Part shown: positions 8,381 through 19,461 of the stretch, piece by piece | How the letters are laid out: the number at the start of each line of letters is the position of its first letter | How positions within the stretch are numbered: position 1 is the stretch's first letter | IMG/VR virus record: IMGVR_UViG_2671180427_000015 | Span: 1 to 19,461 of that record | Origin: a virus | Lineage: Duplodnaviria > Heunggongvirae > Uroviricota > Caudoviricetes | DNA: 19,461 nt | Reading direction: 5' to 3' (one strand) | The notes under the pieces: generated by a model | Seen by the model: only the letters and a program-made list of their open reading frames with translations | What the model was told of the DNA's origin: nothing | The model's database searches: none | Program-made: the position numbers and the translations under genes

Positions 8381-9379
8381 TTGGAAATCAGCACGGCGGT
8401 TATTCATTCCGAAGAAGATGCTTTGCGTTTTGTTGAGATGTACATCGCTGGGCAAGATCTTCCTGATGGAATATCATTTGAAGGGTGGCCTAACTTAACC
8501 TTCCGTCTTACTGGTGACAAATTTCATGGCAGTTTGACTCCTTCTGTCATGAAGGGTTTTGTTGAAATGCAGGCCCAAATAAACCGAGCTTATGCATTGT
8601 TAAAGTACGGAGTTCCTGACCCAAGAAAGCTTTCAAAAGAAGAGAAGGAAGCTATCGAAATTCAGGTGAATGTTGAGAATGGCTCGTCCTTGATAGAAGT
8701 TAATATGGATGGGTTCATGGGTGAGGTTATACAAACTGCGGTGAGTAAAGTGGGCCCTCAAGAGATCGTTATTACAGTTTTAGGGGTCGCTCTTATATGG
8801 GGCGGCGTCGTCCTATTCAAAAAATACCTAGAAGACCGCAAAGAGATTCGCATGGCAGAAGTAAAAAGCGAGTCTGAGCGTGAACACCTTGCGACCATGC
8901 GCTTCATGTCTGAGCAGGAAACAAAACGAAGTGAATTATTGACTCAGATTATTAGCGAAAAACCCAAGCTAGACAACATGGAAAGACTTGCTCATGACGC
9001 AAAAACCGACATAGTTAAATCATTTGTCAAGGCTGATACAGCTCAGATTGATGGCGTTGTATTGGATGCAGATCTATCCAAAACCCTCACTACAAATGCA
9101 AGGCGGAAATCAATGGAGATCCGCCTTGATGGAAATTATCGCATTGAAAAGGTTGACTCCACTGATCCAGAGAGCTTCAAAGTGCAAGTGAGAAATGTTG
9201 ATTCCGATCTAAGAATATCGTGCATAGTACAAGATGTTTTTCTCGACGCATCCGAGCATAAAAAAGCTCTTCAGCAAGCTGAGTGGGATAGAAAACCAGT
9301 TCATTTGTCAATCAACGCAAAAGAACTAGATGGTGAAATAAAGTCCGCGATAATACTTTATGTCAAAGAGATAACATAA
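8381..9379 (+). CDS. Immunity-region cargo protein of unknown function with one central hydrophobic helix (in the position lambda uses for rexA-rexB)
   Basis: 332-aa ORF with TTG start 7 nt after AGAGG; AT-rich; 70 nt downstream of cI on the same strand and followed by an intrinsic terminator; hydrophobic segment IVITVLGVALIWGGVVLF mid-protein; no similarity to RexA/RexB that I can recognise. Confidence 0.6.
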   Translation: MEISTAVIHSEEDALRFVEMYIAGQDLPDGISFEGWPNLTFRLTGDKFHGSLTPSVMKGFVEMQAQINRAYALLKYGVPDPRKLSKEEKEAIEIQVNVENGSSLIEVNMDGFMGEVIQTAVSKVGPQEIVITVLGVALIWGGVVLFKKYLEDRKEIRMAEVKSESEREHLATMRFMSEQETKRSELLTQIISEKPKLDNMERLAHDAKTDIVKSFVKADTAQIDGVVLDADLSKTLTTNARRKSMEIRLDGNYRIEKVDSTDPESFKVQVRNVDSDLRISCIVQDVFLDASEHKKALQQAEWDRKPVHLSINAKELDGEIKSAIILYVKEIT

Positions 9380-9386
9380 TCCTCAT

Positions 9387-9412
9387 CCCGGCCTCAGCGC
9401 CGGGTTTTCTTT
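9387..9412 (+). terminator. Intrinsic terminator ending the cI-cargo transcription unit
   Basis: CCCGGC-CTCAGC-GCCGGG hairpin followed by TTTTCTTT, 8 nt after the ORF stop. Confidence 0.6.
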
Positions 9413-9601: not shown

Positions 9602-9630
9602 TTGATAAAGCAAAATACATATCGTACTAT
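9602..9630 (+). promoter_or_regulatory. pL-like promoter with overlapping operator
   Basis: TTGATA -17 nt- TACTAT; the element TACATATCGTA (9616..9626) matches the OR-type TAC-N5-GTA sites and overlaps the spacer/-10. Confidence 0.45.
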
Positions 9631-9676
9631 TTAACCATCAGCAGGACGCTGGAAGCCAAACGGAACAAACTGGCAG

Positions 9677-9722
9677 GCTCTTTAAACAACGTCGAACTCT
9701 CGACTACGTGGCTGAAAAGCCA
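9677..9722 (+). promoter_or_regulatory. nutL-like site (boxA plus boxB hairpin)
   Basis: GCTCTTTAAACAA (boxA-like) followed 19 nt later by TGGCTGAAAAGCCA (4-bp stem, TGAAAA loop), upstream of N. Confidence 0.5.
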
Positions 9723-9819
9723 GATCACCCAACCACATGAGCTGTGGGATGCAATGCCGAAGCAACCGTCTAGGAGTAGCTTCGAGATTGCATCGCCAAA
9801 GTTTATTCGGGAGGAATCT

Positions 9820-10092
9820 ATGTCCAGAAAAACAGAATTTAAAGGCACCGCAGCTTCTCGCCGTAGAGCTCGTCGCGCAAATCTGCAAAGTCAGGAGGCG
9901 ATTAGCTCCGACAAACTACACAGGCCAACCCCCTCACGAGTGGTCTTGCAATGCAAACGCAAACCAGCAATGAGAGCAGAAGTAATAACACTGACAACGT
10001 TGACCAGAAAATATGAAGGCTCAACTTGTCTTCCAAATGTAGCTCTTTACGCGGCAGGCTACAGGAAATCAAAACAACTGACAGCAAGGTGA
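9820..10092 (+). CDS. N: N-like transcription antiterminator (arginine-rich motif; not lambda N)
   Basis: 90 aa from ATG 9820 (GGGAGG upstream); N-terminal arginine-rich motif GTAASRRRARRANLQ; first gene after pL/nutL. C-terminus resembles what I recall of the P22 gene 24 product, but that recollection is unverified. Confidence 0.7.
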   Translation: MSRKTEFKGTAASRRRARRANLQSQEAISSDKLHRPTPSRVVLQCKRKPAMRAEVITLTTLTRKYEGSTCLPNVALYAAGYRKSKQLTAR

Positions 10093-10237: not shown

Positions 10238-10445
10238 TAAAAATCAATGGTGTGGACAATTCAAGCGATGCAATGGATGCAAGCTGCAATCGGAATGCAT
10301 GGTTAAGCCTGAAGAAATGTTTCCTGTAATGGAAGATGGGAAATATGTCGATAAATGGGCAATACGAACGACGGCAATGATTGCCAGAGAACTTGGTAAA
10401 CAGAACAACAAGGCTGCCTGGTGGTGGCCTTTATTTTTGGCATAA
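10221..10445 (+). CDS. ral: Ral restriction-alleviation protein
   Basis: First 66 aa match recalled lambda Ral (MTTTIDKNQWCGQFKRCNGCKLQSECM...); this ORF reads on for 8 more codons (WWWPLFLA) before the stop. Confidence 0.8.
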   Translation: MTTTIDKNQWCGQFKRCNGCKLQSECMVKPEEMFPVMEDGKYVDKWAIRTTAMIARELGKQNNKAAWWWPLFLA

Positions 10446-13161: not shown

Positions 13162-13340
13162 AGCATCCTCACGATAATATCCGGGTAGGCACGATCACTT
13201 TCGTCTACTCCGTTACAAAGCGAGGCTGGGTATTTCCCGGCCTTTCTGTTATCCGAAATCCCCTGAAAGCACAGCGGCTGGCTGAGGAGATAAATAATAA
13301 ACGAGGGGCTGTATGCACAAAGCATCTCCTGTTGAGTTAA
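13158..13340 (+). CDS. orf60a: orf60a-like protein
   Basis: 60 aa from the second in-frame ATG (ATGA overlap with exo stop); matches recalled lambda orf60a. Confidence 0.6.
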
Positions 13341-14521: not shown

Positions 14522-15277
14522 ATGATTCACTACCACGGTGGGCCTATTACTCCTGATACGTGCGCAATGAGAGCATGGAAAGGGCGACATGCGTTTATCA
14601 GTTTTGCGCATTCAGGCCAGATCAATCTCGCGGCTGAATACTGTCAGTCGTTCGCGCTGGACAACGGTGCATTCACCGCCTGGAAAGCAGCTGGCAAAAA
14701 CAAAATCGACTGGAGCGATTACTACGAGTTTGTTGCTCGCTGGAAGAATCACCCAGGATTCGATTTTGCCATTATCCCGGATATTATTGATGGCGGAGAG
14801 GAGGAAAATGATGCGCTTCTGAATGAGTGGCCTCACGGAAAACTAGCTGGCGTTCCAGTGTGGCACATGAATGAAAGTGACGCGCGATTTATTCATTTGT
14901 GCAATGAGTTTCCGCGAGTGGCTATCGGTAGTTGTGGCGACTATGACGTAAAGCGCCCAACTCTTGCGGTAGCCAGAATGAAAGACCTGATTCGTCACAT
15001 TGTTGATGGGCATGGTCAGCCGGTTACGAAACTACATGGATTGCGCATGTTAAATCCGCTGATATTCACAAAATTACCCTTAGCCAGCGCAGATAGTACG
15101 AACGTCGCTCGAAACATCGGTATTGATAAAGCCTGGTCTGGGGCTTATGCACCTGCAAGTAAAGAGACACGCGCAGCATTAATGGTAGAACGGATTGAGG
15201 CACACAATAGCCCTGGTTCTCTTGCGTATTGTGAACAACGCGACCGCTTTGAAATGCAATTGCAACTAGCAGTTTAA
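14522..15277 (+). CDS. Candidate queuine tRNA-ribosyltransferase-fold protein (DpdA-like 7-deazaguanine DNA transglycosylase candidate)
   Basis: 251 aa from ATG 14522 (AGGAG 6 nt upstream). Five collinear segments resemble recalled E. coli Tgt motifs: LDNGAF (TDSGGF), FAIIPD (MIFDEC), VAIGS (YAVGG), LHGLRML (YLMGVG), ADSTNVARN (FDCVMPTRNARN). No zinc-binding C-terminal subdomain. Functional call unverified. Confidence 0.5.
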   Translation: MIHYHGGPITPDTCAMRAWKGRHAFISFAHSGQINLAAEYCQSFALDNGAFTAWKAAGKNKIDWSDYYEFVARWKNHPGFDFAIIPDIIDGGEEENDALLNEWPHGKLAGVPVWHMNESDARFIHLCNEFPRVAIGSCGDYDVKRPTLAVARMKDLIRHIVDGHGQPVTKLHGLRMLNPLIFTKLPLASADSTNVARNIGIDKAWSGAYAPASKETRAALMVERIEAHNSPGSLAYCEQRDRFEMQLQLAV

Positions 15278-15287
15278 GGACTAACAA

Positions 15288-16085
15288 ATGACCACTATTA
15301 CCAAAGAACGTATTGAATTGTTCATTAAAAATCCGCTTGAAAACGGGCTTACTCGTGGCGAACAAATGGAACTGGCACGAATTGCACTGGCATCACTGGA
15401 ACGCGAACTGATTCGCCACGAGCATGCCAAATGGTCTGACTCCACATTTGGCTGCGTTGGCCCCATTGGTCCACTGAAACACCTCTCAAAAGAGGCTCTG
15501 GAAGCCGCAGCCGAACCAGACGATCTCAGCTAGTGGGCTGATATGCATTTCCTGTTGTGGGATGCACAGCGCCGTGCTGGCATCAGCGATGCTGAAATTA
15601 CCGCTGCTATGGAAGATAAATTGAAGATCAACATGGAGCGCCAGTGGCCTGAACCAAAAGATGGTGAGCCTCGCTTGCACATTAAAGAACCCGGCAACTC
15701 TCCGGTAATTCCGGATGGTTTATCCACGGTATGCGCTGAGGCTTATCAGGTTGTAGGAGTTATGGCAGATGCGCTTGGTGTATTCGGTGATGCAGCAGTA
15801 CAGAAAGTTCTGGATAACCTGTCACAGCAAAAACTTGTTCACAGAGATGTGCTGCCGTTCTCGCTTCCGGTGACTCCGGATGGTTGGATAAGCTGTAGTG
15901 AGCGAATGCCGAAAGAAACGGGTGACATTATTGTTGTTTCGGATGGCATTGTAATGTCCGGGATTTCTTATTCTCGTCGTGACGGGTTCTATATAGCCGC
16001 ATTGGAGTACGACGACGATGAGCCAATTGGCGGTGTAACCCACTGGATGCCTCTACCAGAACCGCCTCGATTAAAGGAGCTATAA
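15288..16085 (+). pseudogene. MazG-like NTP pyrophosphohydrolase / DUF551 reading frame interrupted by an in-frame amber codon (TAG 15531..15533)
   Basis: Track ORFs 15288..15533 and 15543..16085 are in the same frame, separated by TAG plus three sense codons; a MazG-like helix pattern (...EALEAAAEPDDLS * WADMHFLLWDAQRRAGISDAEITAAMEDKLKINMERQW) spans the stop; C-terminal ...HWMPLPEPP is DUF551-like. No convincing Shine-Dalgarno before the downstream ATG. Confidence 0.5.
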
Positions 16086-16199
16086 TAGTGAACTATTATA
16101 TCTATTTGTATTAAAAGAGTTTTTATAAAATAAATCTCCCAAAGCATGTAAAAACACTGTTAATCTTAACGTGTGTGAAACGTGAAGAGAGGTGTTGAA

Positions 16200-16481
16200 A
16201 TGAGCATTCATGATTTGTGTGAAGATCAAGAGCAATGGGCTATGCAGACCCTTATGGGATCAGGAGTTCTTGCAAGGTGCAGAATCCATAACGATGTAAT
16301 TTTAGACAGCGGAAATGATGCTTCTTCTGCTTATAAATTAGGAACTTACCTATATCAAAAAGATAATAGCTGCAACTTATTCAATACTCTTACTGAAGCC
16401 CGCGACGCAATAAAGGATGCATATGAATCGTATTGTGGGATCGATGATTGCCCACAATGCTCAAAATACATTGACGATTAA
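16200..16481 (+). CDS. Ea8.5-like protein
   Basis: 93 aa from ATG 16200 (AGAGAGG upstream), the same length as lambda Ea8.5 and the same position relative to xis; shares the Cys/His pattern and C-terminal ...CPxC.K.IDD with recalled Ea8.5; AT-rich. Confidence 0.6.
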   Translation: MSIHDLCEDQEQWAMQTLMGSGVLARCRIHNDVILDSGNDASSAYKLGTYLYQKDNSCNLFNTLTEARDAIKDAYESYCGIDDCPQCSKYIDD

Positions 16482-16501
16482 TAATATGAACAAGTAACTA
16501 T

Positions 16502-16557
16502 CCTCGCACTCGCGGGGATTTCTTTTATCTGAACTCGCTACGGCGAGTTTTGTTTTA
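16502..16557 (+). terminator. Two tandem intrinsic terminators after the Ea8.5-like gene
   Basis: CCTCGC-ACTC-GCGGGG followed by ATTTCTTTT (16502..16526), and AACTCGC-TACG-GCGAGTT followed by TTGTTTT (16532..16557). Confidence 0.5.
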
Positions 16558-16569
16558 TGGCGATGATAA

Positions 16570-16737
16570 ATGCACTTCCGAGTTACAGGTGAATGGAATG
16601 GAGAACCATTCAACAGAGTTATCGAAGCCGAGAACATCAGCGACTGCTATGACCACTGGATGCTGTGGGCGCAGATAGCACATGCAGACGTAACCAATAT
16701 TCGAATTGAAGAACTGAAAGAACACCAAGCCGCCTGA
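16570..16737 (+). CDS. Small hypothetical protein (55 aa) between two terminators upstream of xis
   Basis: ATG 16570 to TGA 16735..16737, translation MHFRVTGEWNGEPFNRVIEAENISDCYDHWMLWAQIAHADVTNIRIEELKEHQAA; weak ribosome-binding site; stop codon lies in the loop of the following terminator. Confidence 0.4.
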   Translation: MHFRVTGEWNGEPFNRVIEAENISDCYDHWMLWAQIAHADVTNIRIEELKEHQAA

Positions 16738-16752
16738 TGGCGGTTTTTTCTT
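16729..16752 (+). terminator. Intrinsic terminator immediately upstream of xis
   Basis: GCCGCC-TGAT-GGCGG(T) hairpin followed by TTTTTTCTT. Confidence 0.55.
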
Positions 16753-16776
16753 GCGTGTAATTGCGGAGACTTTGCG

Positions 16777-16995
16777 ATGTACTTGACACTTCAGGAGTGG
16801 AACGCTCGCCAGCGACGCCCAAGAAGCCTTGAAACAGTTCGTCGATGGGTGCGCGAATGCAGGATATTCCCTCCTCCGGTTAAGGATGGAAGAGAATATC
16901 TGTTCCACGAATCAGCGGTAAAGGTTGACTTAAATCGACCAGTAACAGGTAGCCTTTTGAAGAGGATCAGAAATGGGAAGAAGGCGAAGTCATGA
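16777..16995 (+). CDS. xis: Excisionase Xis
   Basis: 72-aa translation matches recalled lambda Xis; overlaps the int start. Confidence 0.95.
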   Translation: MYLTLQEWNARQRRPRSLETVRRWVRECRIFPPPVKDGREYLFHESAVKVDLNRPVTGSLLKRIRNGKKAKS

Positions 16996-18043
16996 GCGCC
17001 GGGATTTACCCCCTAACCTTTATATAAGAAACAATGGATATTACTGCTACAGGGACCCAAGGACGGGTAAAGAGTTTGGATTAGGCAGAGACAGGCGAAT
17101 CGCAATCACTGAAGCTATACAGGCCAACATTGAGTTATTTTCAGGACACAAACACAAGCCTCTGACAGCGAGAATCAACAGTGATAATTCCGTTACGTTA
17201 CATTCATGGCTTGATCGCTACGAAAAAATCCTGGCCAGCAGAGGAATCAAGCAGAAGACACTCATAAATTACATGAGCAAAATTAAAGCAATAAGGAGGG
17301 GTCTGCCTGATGCTCCACTTGAAGACATCACCACAAAAGAAATTGCGGCAATGCTCAATGGATACATAGACGAGGGCAAGGCGGCGTCAGCCAAGTTAAT
17401 CAGATCAACACTGAGCGATGCATTCCGAGAGGCAATAGCTGAAGGCCATATAACAACAAACCCTGTCGCTGCCACTCGCGCAGCAAAATCAGAGGTAAGG
17501 AGATCAAGACTTACGGCTGACGAATACCTGAAAATTTATCAAGCAGCAGAATCATCACCATGTTGGCTCAGACTTGCAATGGAACTGGCTGTTGTTACCG
17601 GGCAACGAGTTGGTGATTTATGCGAAATGAAGTGGTCTGATATCGTAGATGGATATCTTTATGTCGAGCAAAGCAAAACAGGCGTAAAAATTGCCATCCC
17701 AACAACATTGCATGTTGATGCTCTCGGGATATCAATGAAGGAAACACTTGATAAATGCAAAGAGATTCTTGGCGGAGAAACCATAATTGCATCTACTCGT
17801 CGTGAACCGCTTTCATCCGGCACAGTATCAAGGTATTTTATGCGCGCACGAAAAGCATCAGGTCTTTCCTTCGAAGGGGATCCGCCTACCTTTCACGAGT
17901 TGCGCAGTTTGTCTGCAAGACTCTATGAGAAGCAGATAAGCGATAAGTTTGCTCAACATCTTCTCGGGCATAAGTCGGACACCATGGCATCACAGTATCG
18001 TGATGACAGAGGCAGGGAGTGGGACAAAATTGAAATCAAATAA
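16973..18043 (+). CDS. int: Tyrosine integrase Int
   Basis: 356-aa translation matches recalled lambda Int, including the C-terminal catalytic region ...HELRSLSARLYEKQISDKFAQHLLGHKSDTMASQYRDDRG... Confidence 0.95.
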   Translation: MGRRRSHERRDLPPNLYIRNNGYYCYRDPRTGKEFGLGRDRRIAITEAIQANIELFSGHKHKPLTARINSDNSVTLHSWLDRYEKILASRGIKQKTLINYMSKIKAIRRGLPDAPLEDITTKEIAAMLNGYIDEGKAASAKLIRSTLSDAFREAIAEGHITTNPVAATRAAKSEVRRSRLTADEYLKIYQAAESSPCWLRLAMELAVVTGQRVGDLCEMKWSDIVDGYLYVEQSKTGVKIAIPTTLHVDALGISMKETLDKCKEILGGETIIASTRREPLSSGTVSRYFMRARKASGLSFEGDPPTFHELRSLSARLYEKQISDKFAQHLLGHKSDTMASQYRDDRGREWDKIEIK

Positions 18044-18131
18044 TGATTTTATTTTGACTGATAGTGACCTGTTCGTTGCAACAAATTGATAAGCAATGCT
18101 TTTTTATAATGCCAACTTAGTATAAAAAAGC
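18044..18131. other. attL: lambda P' arm plus 15-bp core (core TTAGTATAAAAAAGC at 18117..18131 as read on the + strand)
   Basis: Sequence 18051..18131 is the reverse complement of the recalled lambda attP P' arm and core (GCTTTTTTATACTAA), with an arm-type Int site ATAGTGACC; sequence immediately right of the core (AGGCTTCAA) matches the bacterial attB flank rather than the phage P arm. Confidence 0.85.
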
Positions 18132-18177
18132 AGGCTTCAACGGATTCATTTTTCTATTTCATAGCCCGGAGCAACCT

Positions 18178-19461
18178 GTGAACACATTTTCAGTTTCCCG
18201 TCTGGCGCTGGCATTGGCTTTTGGCGTGACGCTGACCGCCTGTAGCTCAACACCACCCGATCAACGTCCTTCTGATCAAACCGCGCCTGGTACCTCTTCT
18301 CGCCCGATTCTGTCGGCAAAAGAAGCGCAGAATTTCGATGCTCAACACTATTTTGCATCCCTGACACCAGGTGCTGCAGCGTGGAATCCTTCCCCGATTA
18401 CCCTGCCTGCGCAACCTGACTTTGTTGTCGGCCCGGCGGGTACTCAAGGTGTAACGCATACCACGATTCAGGCGGCGGTAGATGCGGCAATTATCAAGCG
18501 TACCAACAAGCGCCAGTATATTGCCGTGATGCCAGGTGAGTATCAGGGAACGGTATATGTTCCTGCCGCTCCGGGTGGAATTACTCTGTACGGTACAGGT
18601 GAAAAACCGATTGATGTGAAGATTGGGCTTTCCCTTGATGGGGGCATGAGCCCTGCCGACTGGCGTCACGACGTCAACCCGCGCGGCAAATATATGCCAG
18701 GTAAACCAGCGTGGTATATGTACGATAGCTGCCAGAGCAAACGCAGCAACAGTATCGGTGTTCTCTGTTCAGCGGTCTTCTGGTCACAAAACAATGGCCT
18801 GCAACTGCAAAACCTGACCATCGAAAACACGCTGGGCGATAGCGTAGATGCGGGTAACCATCCGGCGGTGGCACTGCGTACTGATGGTGACCAGGTACAG
18901 ATTAACAACGTGAACATTCTCGGTCGTCAGAACACCTTCTTTGTCACCAACAGCGGTGTGCAGAACCGTCTGGAAACGAATCGTCAGCCGCGTACGCTGG
19001 TGACCAACAGCTACATTGAAGGGGATGTGGATATCGTTTCTGGTCGCGGCGCAGTGGTGTTCGATAACACCGAATTCCGCGTGGTGAACTCACGTACTCA
19101 GCAAGAAGCGTATGTGTTTGCACCGGCAACGCTGTCCAACATTTACTACGGTTTCCTCGCTGTAAACAGCCGTTTCAATGCTTCCGGTGATGGCGTGGCG
19201 CAACTGGGCCGCTCGCTGGATGTTGATGCCAATACCAACGGTCAGGTGGTGATCCGTGATAGCGCCATCAACGAAGGTTTTAACACGGCTAAACCGTGGG
19301 CCGATGCGGTGATCTCTAATCGTCCGTTTGCGGGTAATACCGGCAGCGTAGATGATAACGACGAAATACAGCGCAATCTGAATGACACTAACTACAACCG
19401 CATGTGGGAATACAATAACCGCGGCGTGGGTAGTAAAGTGGTTGCAGAGGCGAAGAAGTAA
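18178..19461 (+). CDS. ybhC: Host lipoprotein YbhC (pectinesterase-family outer-membrane lipoprotein) flanking attB-lambda
   Basis: 427-aa ORF with GTG start, signal peptide and lipobox (LTAC); matches recalled E. coli YbhC, the gene adjacent to the lambda attachment site; higher GC than the prophage cargo. Confidence 0.85.
   Translation: MNTFSVSRLALALAFGVTLTACSSTPPDQRPSDQTAPGTSSRPILSAKEAQNFDAQHYFASLTPGAAAWNPSPITLPAQPDFVVGPAGTQGVTHTTIQAAVDAAIIKRTNKRQYIAVMPGEYQGTVYVPAAPGGITLYGTGEKPIDVKIGLSLDGGMSPADWRHDVNPRGKYMPGKPAWYMYDSCQSKRSNSIGVLCSAVFWSQNNGLQLQNLTIENTLGDSVDAGNHPAVALRTDGDQVQINNVNILGRQNTFFVTNSGVQNRLETNRQPRTLVTNSYIEGDVDIVSGRGAVVFDNTEFRVVNSRTQQEAYVFAPATLSNIYYGFLAVNSRFNASGDGVAQLGRSLDVDANTNGQVVIRDSAINEGFNTAKPWADAVISNRPFAGNTGSVDDNDEIQRNLNDTNYNRMWEYNNRGVGSKVVAEAKK

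Follow-up and report, generated by a model that had tools for sequence, protein, structure and literature searches.

Three hairpin/T-run elements around orf55 upstream of xis: a very probable tL4-orf55-t'I segment of a lambda-type prophage

Known elements upstream of xis in lambda and its relatives

N-dependent read-through to xis and int is textbook lambda biology, and the pL operon of lambda has further terminators that N suppresses, namely tL1, the tL2 cluster and tL3. Names have also been given to hairpins at the far end of the operon. A 't-L4' feature in the record of phage 434 (M60848) and a 'tL4 terminator' feature in that of HK022 (X51962) each cover exactly the element that we call hairpin 1 together with its T-run. 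M60848 also annotates "t'-I" directly before TTGCGTGTAATTGC of pI, and the element that we call hairpin 3 sits in that same place, directly before TTGCGTGTAATTGC of pI. When lambda was aligned with the DNA analyzed here, the hairpin at the t'I position was in both cases the one that ends orf55. Benedik, Mascarenhas and Campbell reportedly described the integrase promoter and the T'I terminator of lambda and 434 in 1983; from its position, and from the title of that paper, we take hairpin 3 to be the t'I of lambda. The re-annotated genome of 434 (OL657226) carries the label 'terminator PMID:6305007' for the terminator that precedes pI. All three hairpins were predicted in lambda with ARNold, as t3, t4 and t5, by Bloch et al. 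(2014; PMC4195576, Table 4). Hairpin 2, the 't4-lambda' of those authors, is unnamed in GenBank records.

The 434 sequence shows a further arrangement of these elements. The hairpin at the end of ORF55 (M60848; L001, 530-545) has GGAGG and not GGCGG in its 3' arm, so that one pair is broken, and the annotated t'-I is a second, related hairpin, which lies past ORF114 and 430 nt further downstream. In 434, the insertion of ORF114 seems to have either duplicated or split the terminator.

The gene between the hairpins is also known. In the literature on the exo-xis region, orf55 is one of seven ORFs, and together with orf73, ea22 and ea8.5 it has been implicated in blocking the initiation of host replication. 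All parts of the segment, terminators and ORF alike, have thus already been described, at least as annotation and prediction. As a discovery the segment carries small weight, being a near-copy of a part of lambda that was named decades ago and predicted again in 2014.

The window, by which we mean the whole stretch of 19,461 nt that was analyzed, matches these phages closely over a short interval. By megablast and alignment, positions 16495-16800 are ~96% identical to phage lambda J02459 29055-29360 (minus strand), and phages 434, HK022 and DE3 and many prophages are similarly close. A 901-bp stretch, 16100-17000, is present at 100% identity in E. coli chromosomes, where the NCBI annotation gives two hypothetical proteins, an excisionase and an integrase. 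DNA similarity to lambda begins only at ~16495, that is, 3' of the gene at 16200..16481 (+ strand, 93 aa). The preliminary description of this DNA had called that gene Ea8.5-like, which Pfam bears out (PF20735, E = 9.2e-16; PHROG 6325); its product is 41% identical to lambda Ea8.5 and represents a different allele from that of lambda.

Downstream of orf55, the pI promoter could be placed at 16751..16782 (+ strand) by transfer from the 434 record OL657226, the sequence being identical here. The CII-binding repeats TTGC-N6-TTGC are visible within it at 16751-16764 (+ strand). The promoter overlaps both the end of the T-run of hairpin 3 and the start of xis, and the first TTGC of the CII site is overlapped by the t'I T-run. 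The excisionase gene xis (16777..16995, + strand, 72 aa; Pfam PF07825, E = 3.9e-41) is followed by int (16973..18043, + strand), a lambda-type tyrosine integrase of 356 aa according to the annotation of the matching lambda and 434 records. After int come the prophage end and then the host gene ybhC, and this order places the prophage end at the lambda attachment site. We consider it very likely that 16495-16800 corresponds to the tL4 - orf55 - t'I - pI/xis part of a lambda-type prophage integrated next to ybhC in E. coli.

Three hairpin/T-run sites at the distal end of the early-left operon

Two tandem hairpin/T-runs had been noted after the Ea8.5-like gene in the preliminary description, and both were recovered. 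The stem of hairpin 1 (16500-16519) has eight pairs, five of them G-C, with a loop of 4 nt, and is followed by TTCTTTTA, the element as a whole occupying 16500..16528 on the + strand; it begins 19 nt past the stop codon of the Ea8.5-type gene. Its MFE is -12.1 kcal/mol, with z = -4.9 against dinucleotide shuffles. Hairpin 2 (16531..16558 with its T-run, + strand; stem 16531-16550) likewise has eight pairs and a 4-nt loop, here with the tail TTTTGTTTTAT (MFE -11.9 kcal/mol, z = -4.1 on the same comparison), and the ribosome-binding site of orf55 directly abuts its T-run. Hairpin 3 (16727..16752 with its T-run, + strand) consists of a stem at 16727-16746 with eight pairs, five of them G-C, the loop TGAT and the tail TTTTTTCTT; its MFE is -13.0 kcal/mol (z = -2.7 against dinucleotide shuffles). 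The 55-codon ORF at 16570..16737, which had been described as ending within a third hairpin, does so: its TGA (16735-16737) lies in the TGAT loop. The xis start at 16777 is 24 nt past the last T of the hairpin 3 T-run and 30 nt past the stem.

A re-implemented terminator scan returned exactly three + strand sites in 16482-16786, which have 8-pair stems with 4-5 G-C pairs, 4-nt loops and at least five T in the next 8 nt. Dinucleotide-preserving shuffles of the interval (n = 2000) gave no site in 1979 cases, one site in 21 and two or more in none. Three sense-strand hairpin/T-run elements are therefore present far beyond chance. Each of the three has the stem and T-run, the orientation and the position of an intrinsic terminator, and all lie on the + strand, as does every gene from N to int. 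A scan of the minus strand in this region returned no T-runs and no promoter-like sites. The hairpins are modest in energy (-12 to -13 kcal/mol), and the T-runs of hairpins 1 and 2 are interrupted. Among 38 distinct contexts, hairpin 2 is nearly invariant and the G-C cores of the hairpins never vary; covariation is uninformative for the stems in this set, the variants being one-sided (G-U to A-U) or single mismatches. A search of 15000-19461 against Rfam with E up to 1 gave only a chance miRNA match outside the region.

The wider setting was read from the order of genes on the + strand, which is N, gam, bet, exo, orf73 (TraR-like), ea22-like, ea8.5-like, orf55, xis and int, with a cI-type repressor upstream on the same strand. 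The N gene lies at 9754-10092 (+ strand; Pfam N_peptide, E = 2e-32), and a pL-like promoter with nutL-like boxA/boxB can be seen in the sequence at ~9602-9723 (+ strand; boxA/boxB at ~9677-9723). The gene order, N, the pL-like promoter and the nutL-like site together identify the segment as the distal end of an early-left (pL) operon. Downstream of N there are eight terminator-like sites on the + strand, at 10410, 10556, 10997, 13222, 13817, 16500, 16531 and 16727, and at least five of them lie between N and the Ea8.5-like gene. Two of the eight, at 13222 and 13817, have the same sequence as t1 and t2, respectively, in the lambda set of Bloch et al. (PMC4195576). On the minus strand, the terminator scan found no terminator-like sites between 10410 and 16746. 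Lambda t1, the counterpart of the site at 13222, is presumably the classical tL3.

Two other features of this part of the window were recorded. At 15288-16085 (+ strand), a single frame fuses a dATP/dGTP pyrophosphohydrolase domain (PF04447) to DUF551 and is broken by an in-frame TAG at 15531-15533 ('DDLS*WADMHF'), with Pfam profile positions 1-38 before the TAG and 45-96 after it; the TAG is probably a nonsense mutation that makes this gene a pseudogene. Further upstream, a 332-codon ORF (8381-9379, + strand) occupies the place that rexA/rexB have in lambda, with the cI-type repressor on one side and the pL-like promoter on the other; a strong terminator-like site comes after it, at 9387-9404. 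A Pfam search assigned no family to this ORF, which may be a prophage-expressed exclusion or defence gene.

Termination, translation of orf55 and cassette exchange

From lambda biology, the hairpins would act as intrinsic terminators on RNA polymerase lacking the modification by N at nutL, and N-modified polymerase coming from pL would read through them, allowing orf55, xis and int to be expressed. Hairpins 1 and 2, as the double terminator tL4, would end the Ea8.5-type cassette in an untranslated spacer. At the other end of orf55, t'I abuts the CII-binding site of pI and would keep unmodified transcription from upstream out of xis. The xis start codon lies upstream of the predicted pI start site, so pI transcripts would begin inside xis and encode Int only, and Xis would be made only from antiterminated pL transcripts.

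The preliminary description had gone further in proposing that insulation by these terminators makes excision-gene expression strongly dependent on N. One part of this proposal stands: the terminator anatomy, the sense-strand orientation and the presence of an N gene and a nutL-like site upstream on the same strand all lead one to expect N-dependent read-through to xis and int. The part that assigns this dependence to the insulating hairpins does not, since at least five upstream terminator-like sites already impose it, and the N-dependence of xis and int thus does not rest on these three. Their added regulatory effect may be small. Their specific role is likely to be in stopping transcription that arises or escapes within the accessory region, with t'I insulating pI and xis.

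The ribosome-binding site of orf55 was also considered. The Shine-Dalgarno sequence at 16559..16562 (+ strand) is GGCG, with C at 16561, where lambda and most relatives have GGAG. The calculated anti-SD duplex is worth -1.9 kcal/mol for the GGCG of the window versus -6.4 for the GGAG of lambda and most relatives, and ranges from -6.4 to -7.3 kcal/mol for GGAG across lambda and the Klebsiella homologues, so that the earlier characterization of this site as weak is correct for the present sequence. The GGCG form occurs in ~12 of 88 loci, in several upstream contexts and always with the ORF intact; loci with unrelated upstream DNA still carry GGAG at a similar spacing. The weak site is, on this comparison of loci, a lineage polymorphism (GGAG to GGCG).

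An addition to the explanation by intrinsic termination, rather than an alternative that would exclude it, is that t'I is gated by the translation of orf55. A ribosome finishing orf55 would cover the 5' arm of t'I and prevent the hairpin from forming, so that t'I would stop only polymerases whose transcript is untranslated, and the leak into xis and int would depend on how strong the ribosome-binding site of orf55 is (GGAG versus GGCG). The stop codon within the t'I loop and the existence of the SD polymorphism are both consistent with this, and there is a precedent in the in vivo work on tR2, in which a terminator a few bases after a stop codon was almost completely repressed by ribosomes (PMC4824070). 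By analogy, t'I may be largely silenced whenever orf55 is translated. The stop-in-loop layout is kept in the Klebsiella-type homologues L005, L098 and L100 despite a different C-terminal peptide, in the form GCC GCC NNN TGA GGCGG T-run, with synonymous sites saturated in these comparisons, and in the AlphaFold2 model the last six residues of Orf55 lie outside the fold. Since the layout persists with different C-terminal peptides and the tail forms no part of the fold, the constraint looks to be on the RNA hairpin. However, overlap of a stop codon with a terminator is common in compact phage genomes and perhaps reflects economy only, the hairpin has decayed in L006 and L007 while orf55 persists, and N makes t'I irrelevant in lytic growth. 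We therefore regard gating of t'I by translation as possible, if unlikely. A broader proposal, that orf55 translation gates t'I with GGAG/GGCG tuning the leak into xis and int and, separately, that Orf55 is a Gp2-like RNA polymerase binder, we consider doubtful. If it were true, the gating would bear on how tightly prophages keep Xis silent.

The edges of the conserved segment were examined with orf55 as the anchor in 56 distinct contexts. Up to 16499, identity to the window is 0.36-0.51; at 16500 it steps from 0.51 to 0.75, and over both tandem hairpins and the SD it is 0.74-0.94. It stays at ~0.92-1.00 through orf55 and hairpin 3, and then falls from 0.99 to 0.73 at 16750 and on to ~0.6. The conserved mosaic module has hairpin 1 as its exact left edge and the hairpin 3 T-run as its exact right edge. 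At its 5' edge, hairpin 1 was found in four states: the lambda form; the 434 form, with G-U replaced by A-U and a wider loop; a hairpin/T-run that is not homologous, AACCCGCCGAGTGCGGGTT, and that has a relative ahead of the Klebsiella-type gene in L100; and absent altogether. At its 3' edge, the T-run of hairpin 3 has at least six different continuations. The tandem hairpins also stand alone between unrelated genes in P22-like Salmonella and Stx phages, and Salmonella phage ST64T retains only the last 14 orf55 codons with the hairpin and T-run (L089 1501-1564, between eag and eac). Because the conserved unit extends from hairpin 1 to the t'I T-run, the hairpins are boundaries of mosaic cassettes as well, and they mark the places where cassettes of accessory genes are swapped among lambdoid phages. 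Such a role agrees with what is generally known of mosaicism in lambdoid phages, and the edges of the module illustrate cassette swapping at linkers made of a terminator and a ribosome-binding site.

Several individual joints were observed. After the remnant in ST64T comes GGAGACAAGAAATG, a linker that also stands ahead of ORF114 in 434. A recurrent junction consisting of a T-run and ATTGGAGACAA(GA/TC)A ATG connects different cassettes in phages of E. coli, Salmonella and Klebsiella, at L001 540-566, at L091 1560-1582 and upstream of orf55 in L099 and L100; this junction of terminator tail and ribosome-binding site may be a preferred recombination linker. In one IMG/VR contig (L047), TCCGGTAATTCCGGATGGTTTATC, which in the window lies inside the DUF551 gene (15701-15723), is joined directly to hairpin 2; the Ea8.5-type gene and hairpin 1 have been deleted there, at a TTTATC microhomology.

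With joints falling exactly at hairpins and T-runs, it could be argued that the hairpins serve mainly as protectors of RNA 3' ends or as recombination linkers at cassette boundaries and terminate little in vivo. The recurrent linker of T-run and GGAGACAA that is common to different cassettes is in keeping with such a function, as are the modest stem energies. Against this, all of the hairpins are oriented with the operon and have T-runs on that strand only, and the curated 434 and HK022 records name these sites as terminators. Moreover, hairpin 1 has been replaced in some loci by a non-homologous hairpin/T-run, and this speaks for selection on the structure rather than on sequence homology alone. 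We judge a main role in protection or linkage to be improbable and retain intrinsic termination as the preferred reading.

orf55 and the comparison with known systems

The gene between tL4 and t'I, orf55 (lambdap35), has its ATG at 16570 on the + strand. Its product matches lambda Orf55 at 53 of 55 residues (96% identity) and PHROG 676 over residues 1-55 of 55 (E = 5.5e-40); a Pfam search found no family. Klebsiella prophages, which are represented among the 98 homologues found, carry Orf55 proteins of 55 residues with 73-75% identity. In these prophages the gene is the last or next-to-last before xis/int, and this position is kept even where the excisionase and the integrase belong to other families. 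Nei-Gojobori values of dN/dS, for which synonymous sites approach saturation, are 0.10 in the comparison with lambda and 0.11-0.13 in those with the Klebsiella genes; among close Klebsiella homologues dN/dS reaches 0.41. Variable columns number 18, 6 and 41 at codon positions 1, 2 and 3.

Conservation of the 55-residue frame had been proposed in the preliminary description as a check, and the frame was intact, with no disruption, in 33 distinct CDS. HK022 has a 1-nt deletion in codon 2, and upstream in-frame ATGs in the former SD region rescue the frame; the HK022 genome record contains a 59-codon CDS with the note 'undocumented homolog present in lambda' (L004 330-345 / L101 875-1054). Some phages carry truncated or fused remnants of orf55, so the gene is dispensable and sometimes lost. 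The pattern of substitution shows orf55 to be a genuine gene for a small protein, with purifying selection acting on it, and conservation settles that its evolution is that of a protein gene and not of a leader RNA. That the ORF might instead be untranslated and 16482-16776 a structured leader or small RNA, as had been suggested from the weak SD of the window and for which stable local structure is also predicted, is very nearly out of the question and was rejected in view of the dN/dS of ~0.1 and strong third-position bias, the conservation of ORF length and position at 73% amino-acid identity, GGAG at proper spacing in most relatives, a confident fold prediction (pLDDT 90), and searches that returned no Rfam family for the region and no promoter-like site ahead of the ORF. 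A 117-codon antisense ORF at 16555-16908 was dismissed as a shadow of orf55 and xis, the minus strand being free of T-runs and promoter-like sites.

The AlphaFold2 model of Orf55 has a beta-beta-alpha-beta topology with a mean pLDDT of 90.1 and low confidence only in the last six residues. The best PDB match to this fold by Foldseek was T7 Gp2 in its bound state on E. coli RNAP (E = 0.04, TM 0.57-0.69). The matches to Gp2 and YkzG were 4lk0_M (E = 0.04), 4llg (TM 0.63-0.69) and 4njc (E = 0.18), all with E > 0.001. A modelling paper from 2021 had described Orf55 as a small alpha/beta protein resembling T7 Gp2, with the same fold matches, and the docking of Orf55 on RNA polymerase in the literature is a speculative model. 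A profile search of PDB sequences with E up to 10 did not return Gp2, and the sequence-profile matches that it did give were chance ones, involving a GEWN motif in nitrite reductases. With hhalign, the probability for Orf55 against a manually entered T7 Gp2 sequence was 1.8%, which is not significant. With weak E-values and no support at the level of sequence, the model does not establish membership of Orf55 in the Gp2 family.

Several known systems resemble parts of this locus. T7 Gp2, an inhibitor of the host RNA polymerase, and YkzG, the epsilon subunit of Gram-positive RNAP, are the best, if weak, structural matches of the Orf55 model but share no significant sequence similarity with it, and the fold is a small one of a common type. 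Morons, lambdoid accessory cassettes in which a promoter and a terminator of its own flank the gene, are similar in that a small non-essential gene is bounded by terminators, with edges at mosaic joints. Unlike morons, orf55 is not preceded by a promoter-like site and is apparently expressed within the pL operon. A crude consensus scan, which weak promoters could escape, found no sigma-70-like site between 16482 and 16570, and for this reason the moron model, in which orf55 would have its own promoter, was rejected. The lambda terminators tL1, the tL2 cluster and tL3 are alike in that they lie on the sense strand within a single long operon and N-modified polymerase reads through them. The three sites described here differ from them in lying at the far end of the operon, with two in tandem and one overlapping both a stop codon and a CII-activated promoter.

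The closest counterpart is the region itself in lambda, 434 and HK022, which has the same succession of an Ea8.5-type gene, two hairpins, orf55, a hairpin with the stop codon in its loop, the CII site and pI, xis and int, and in which the annotated or predicted positions of the hairpins are those found here. The locus differs from lambda in the Ea8.5-type allele, at 41% identity, in the orf55 SD, which is GGCG and not GGAG, in an A-U pair of hairpin 2 where lambda has G-U, and in two conservative amino-acid changes in Orf55.
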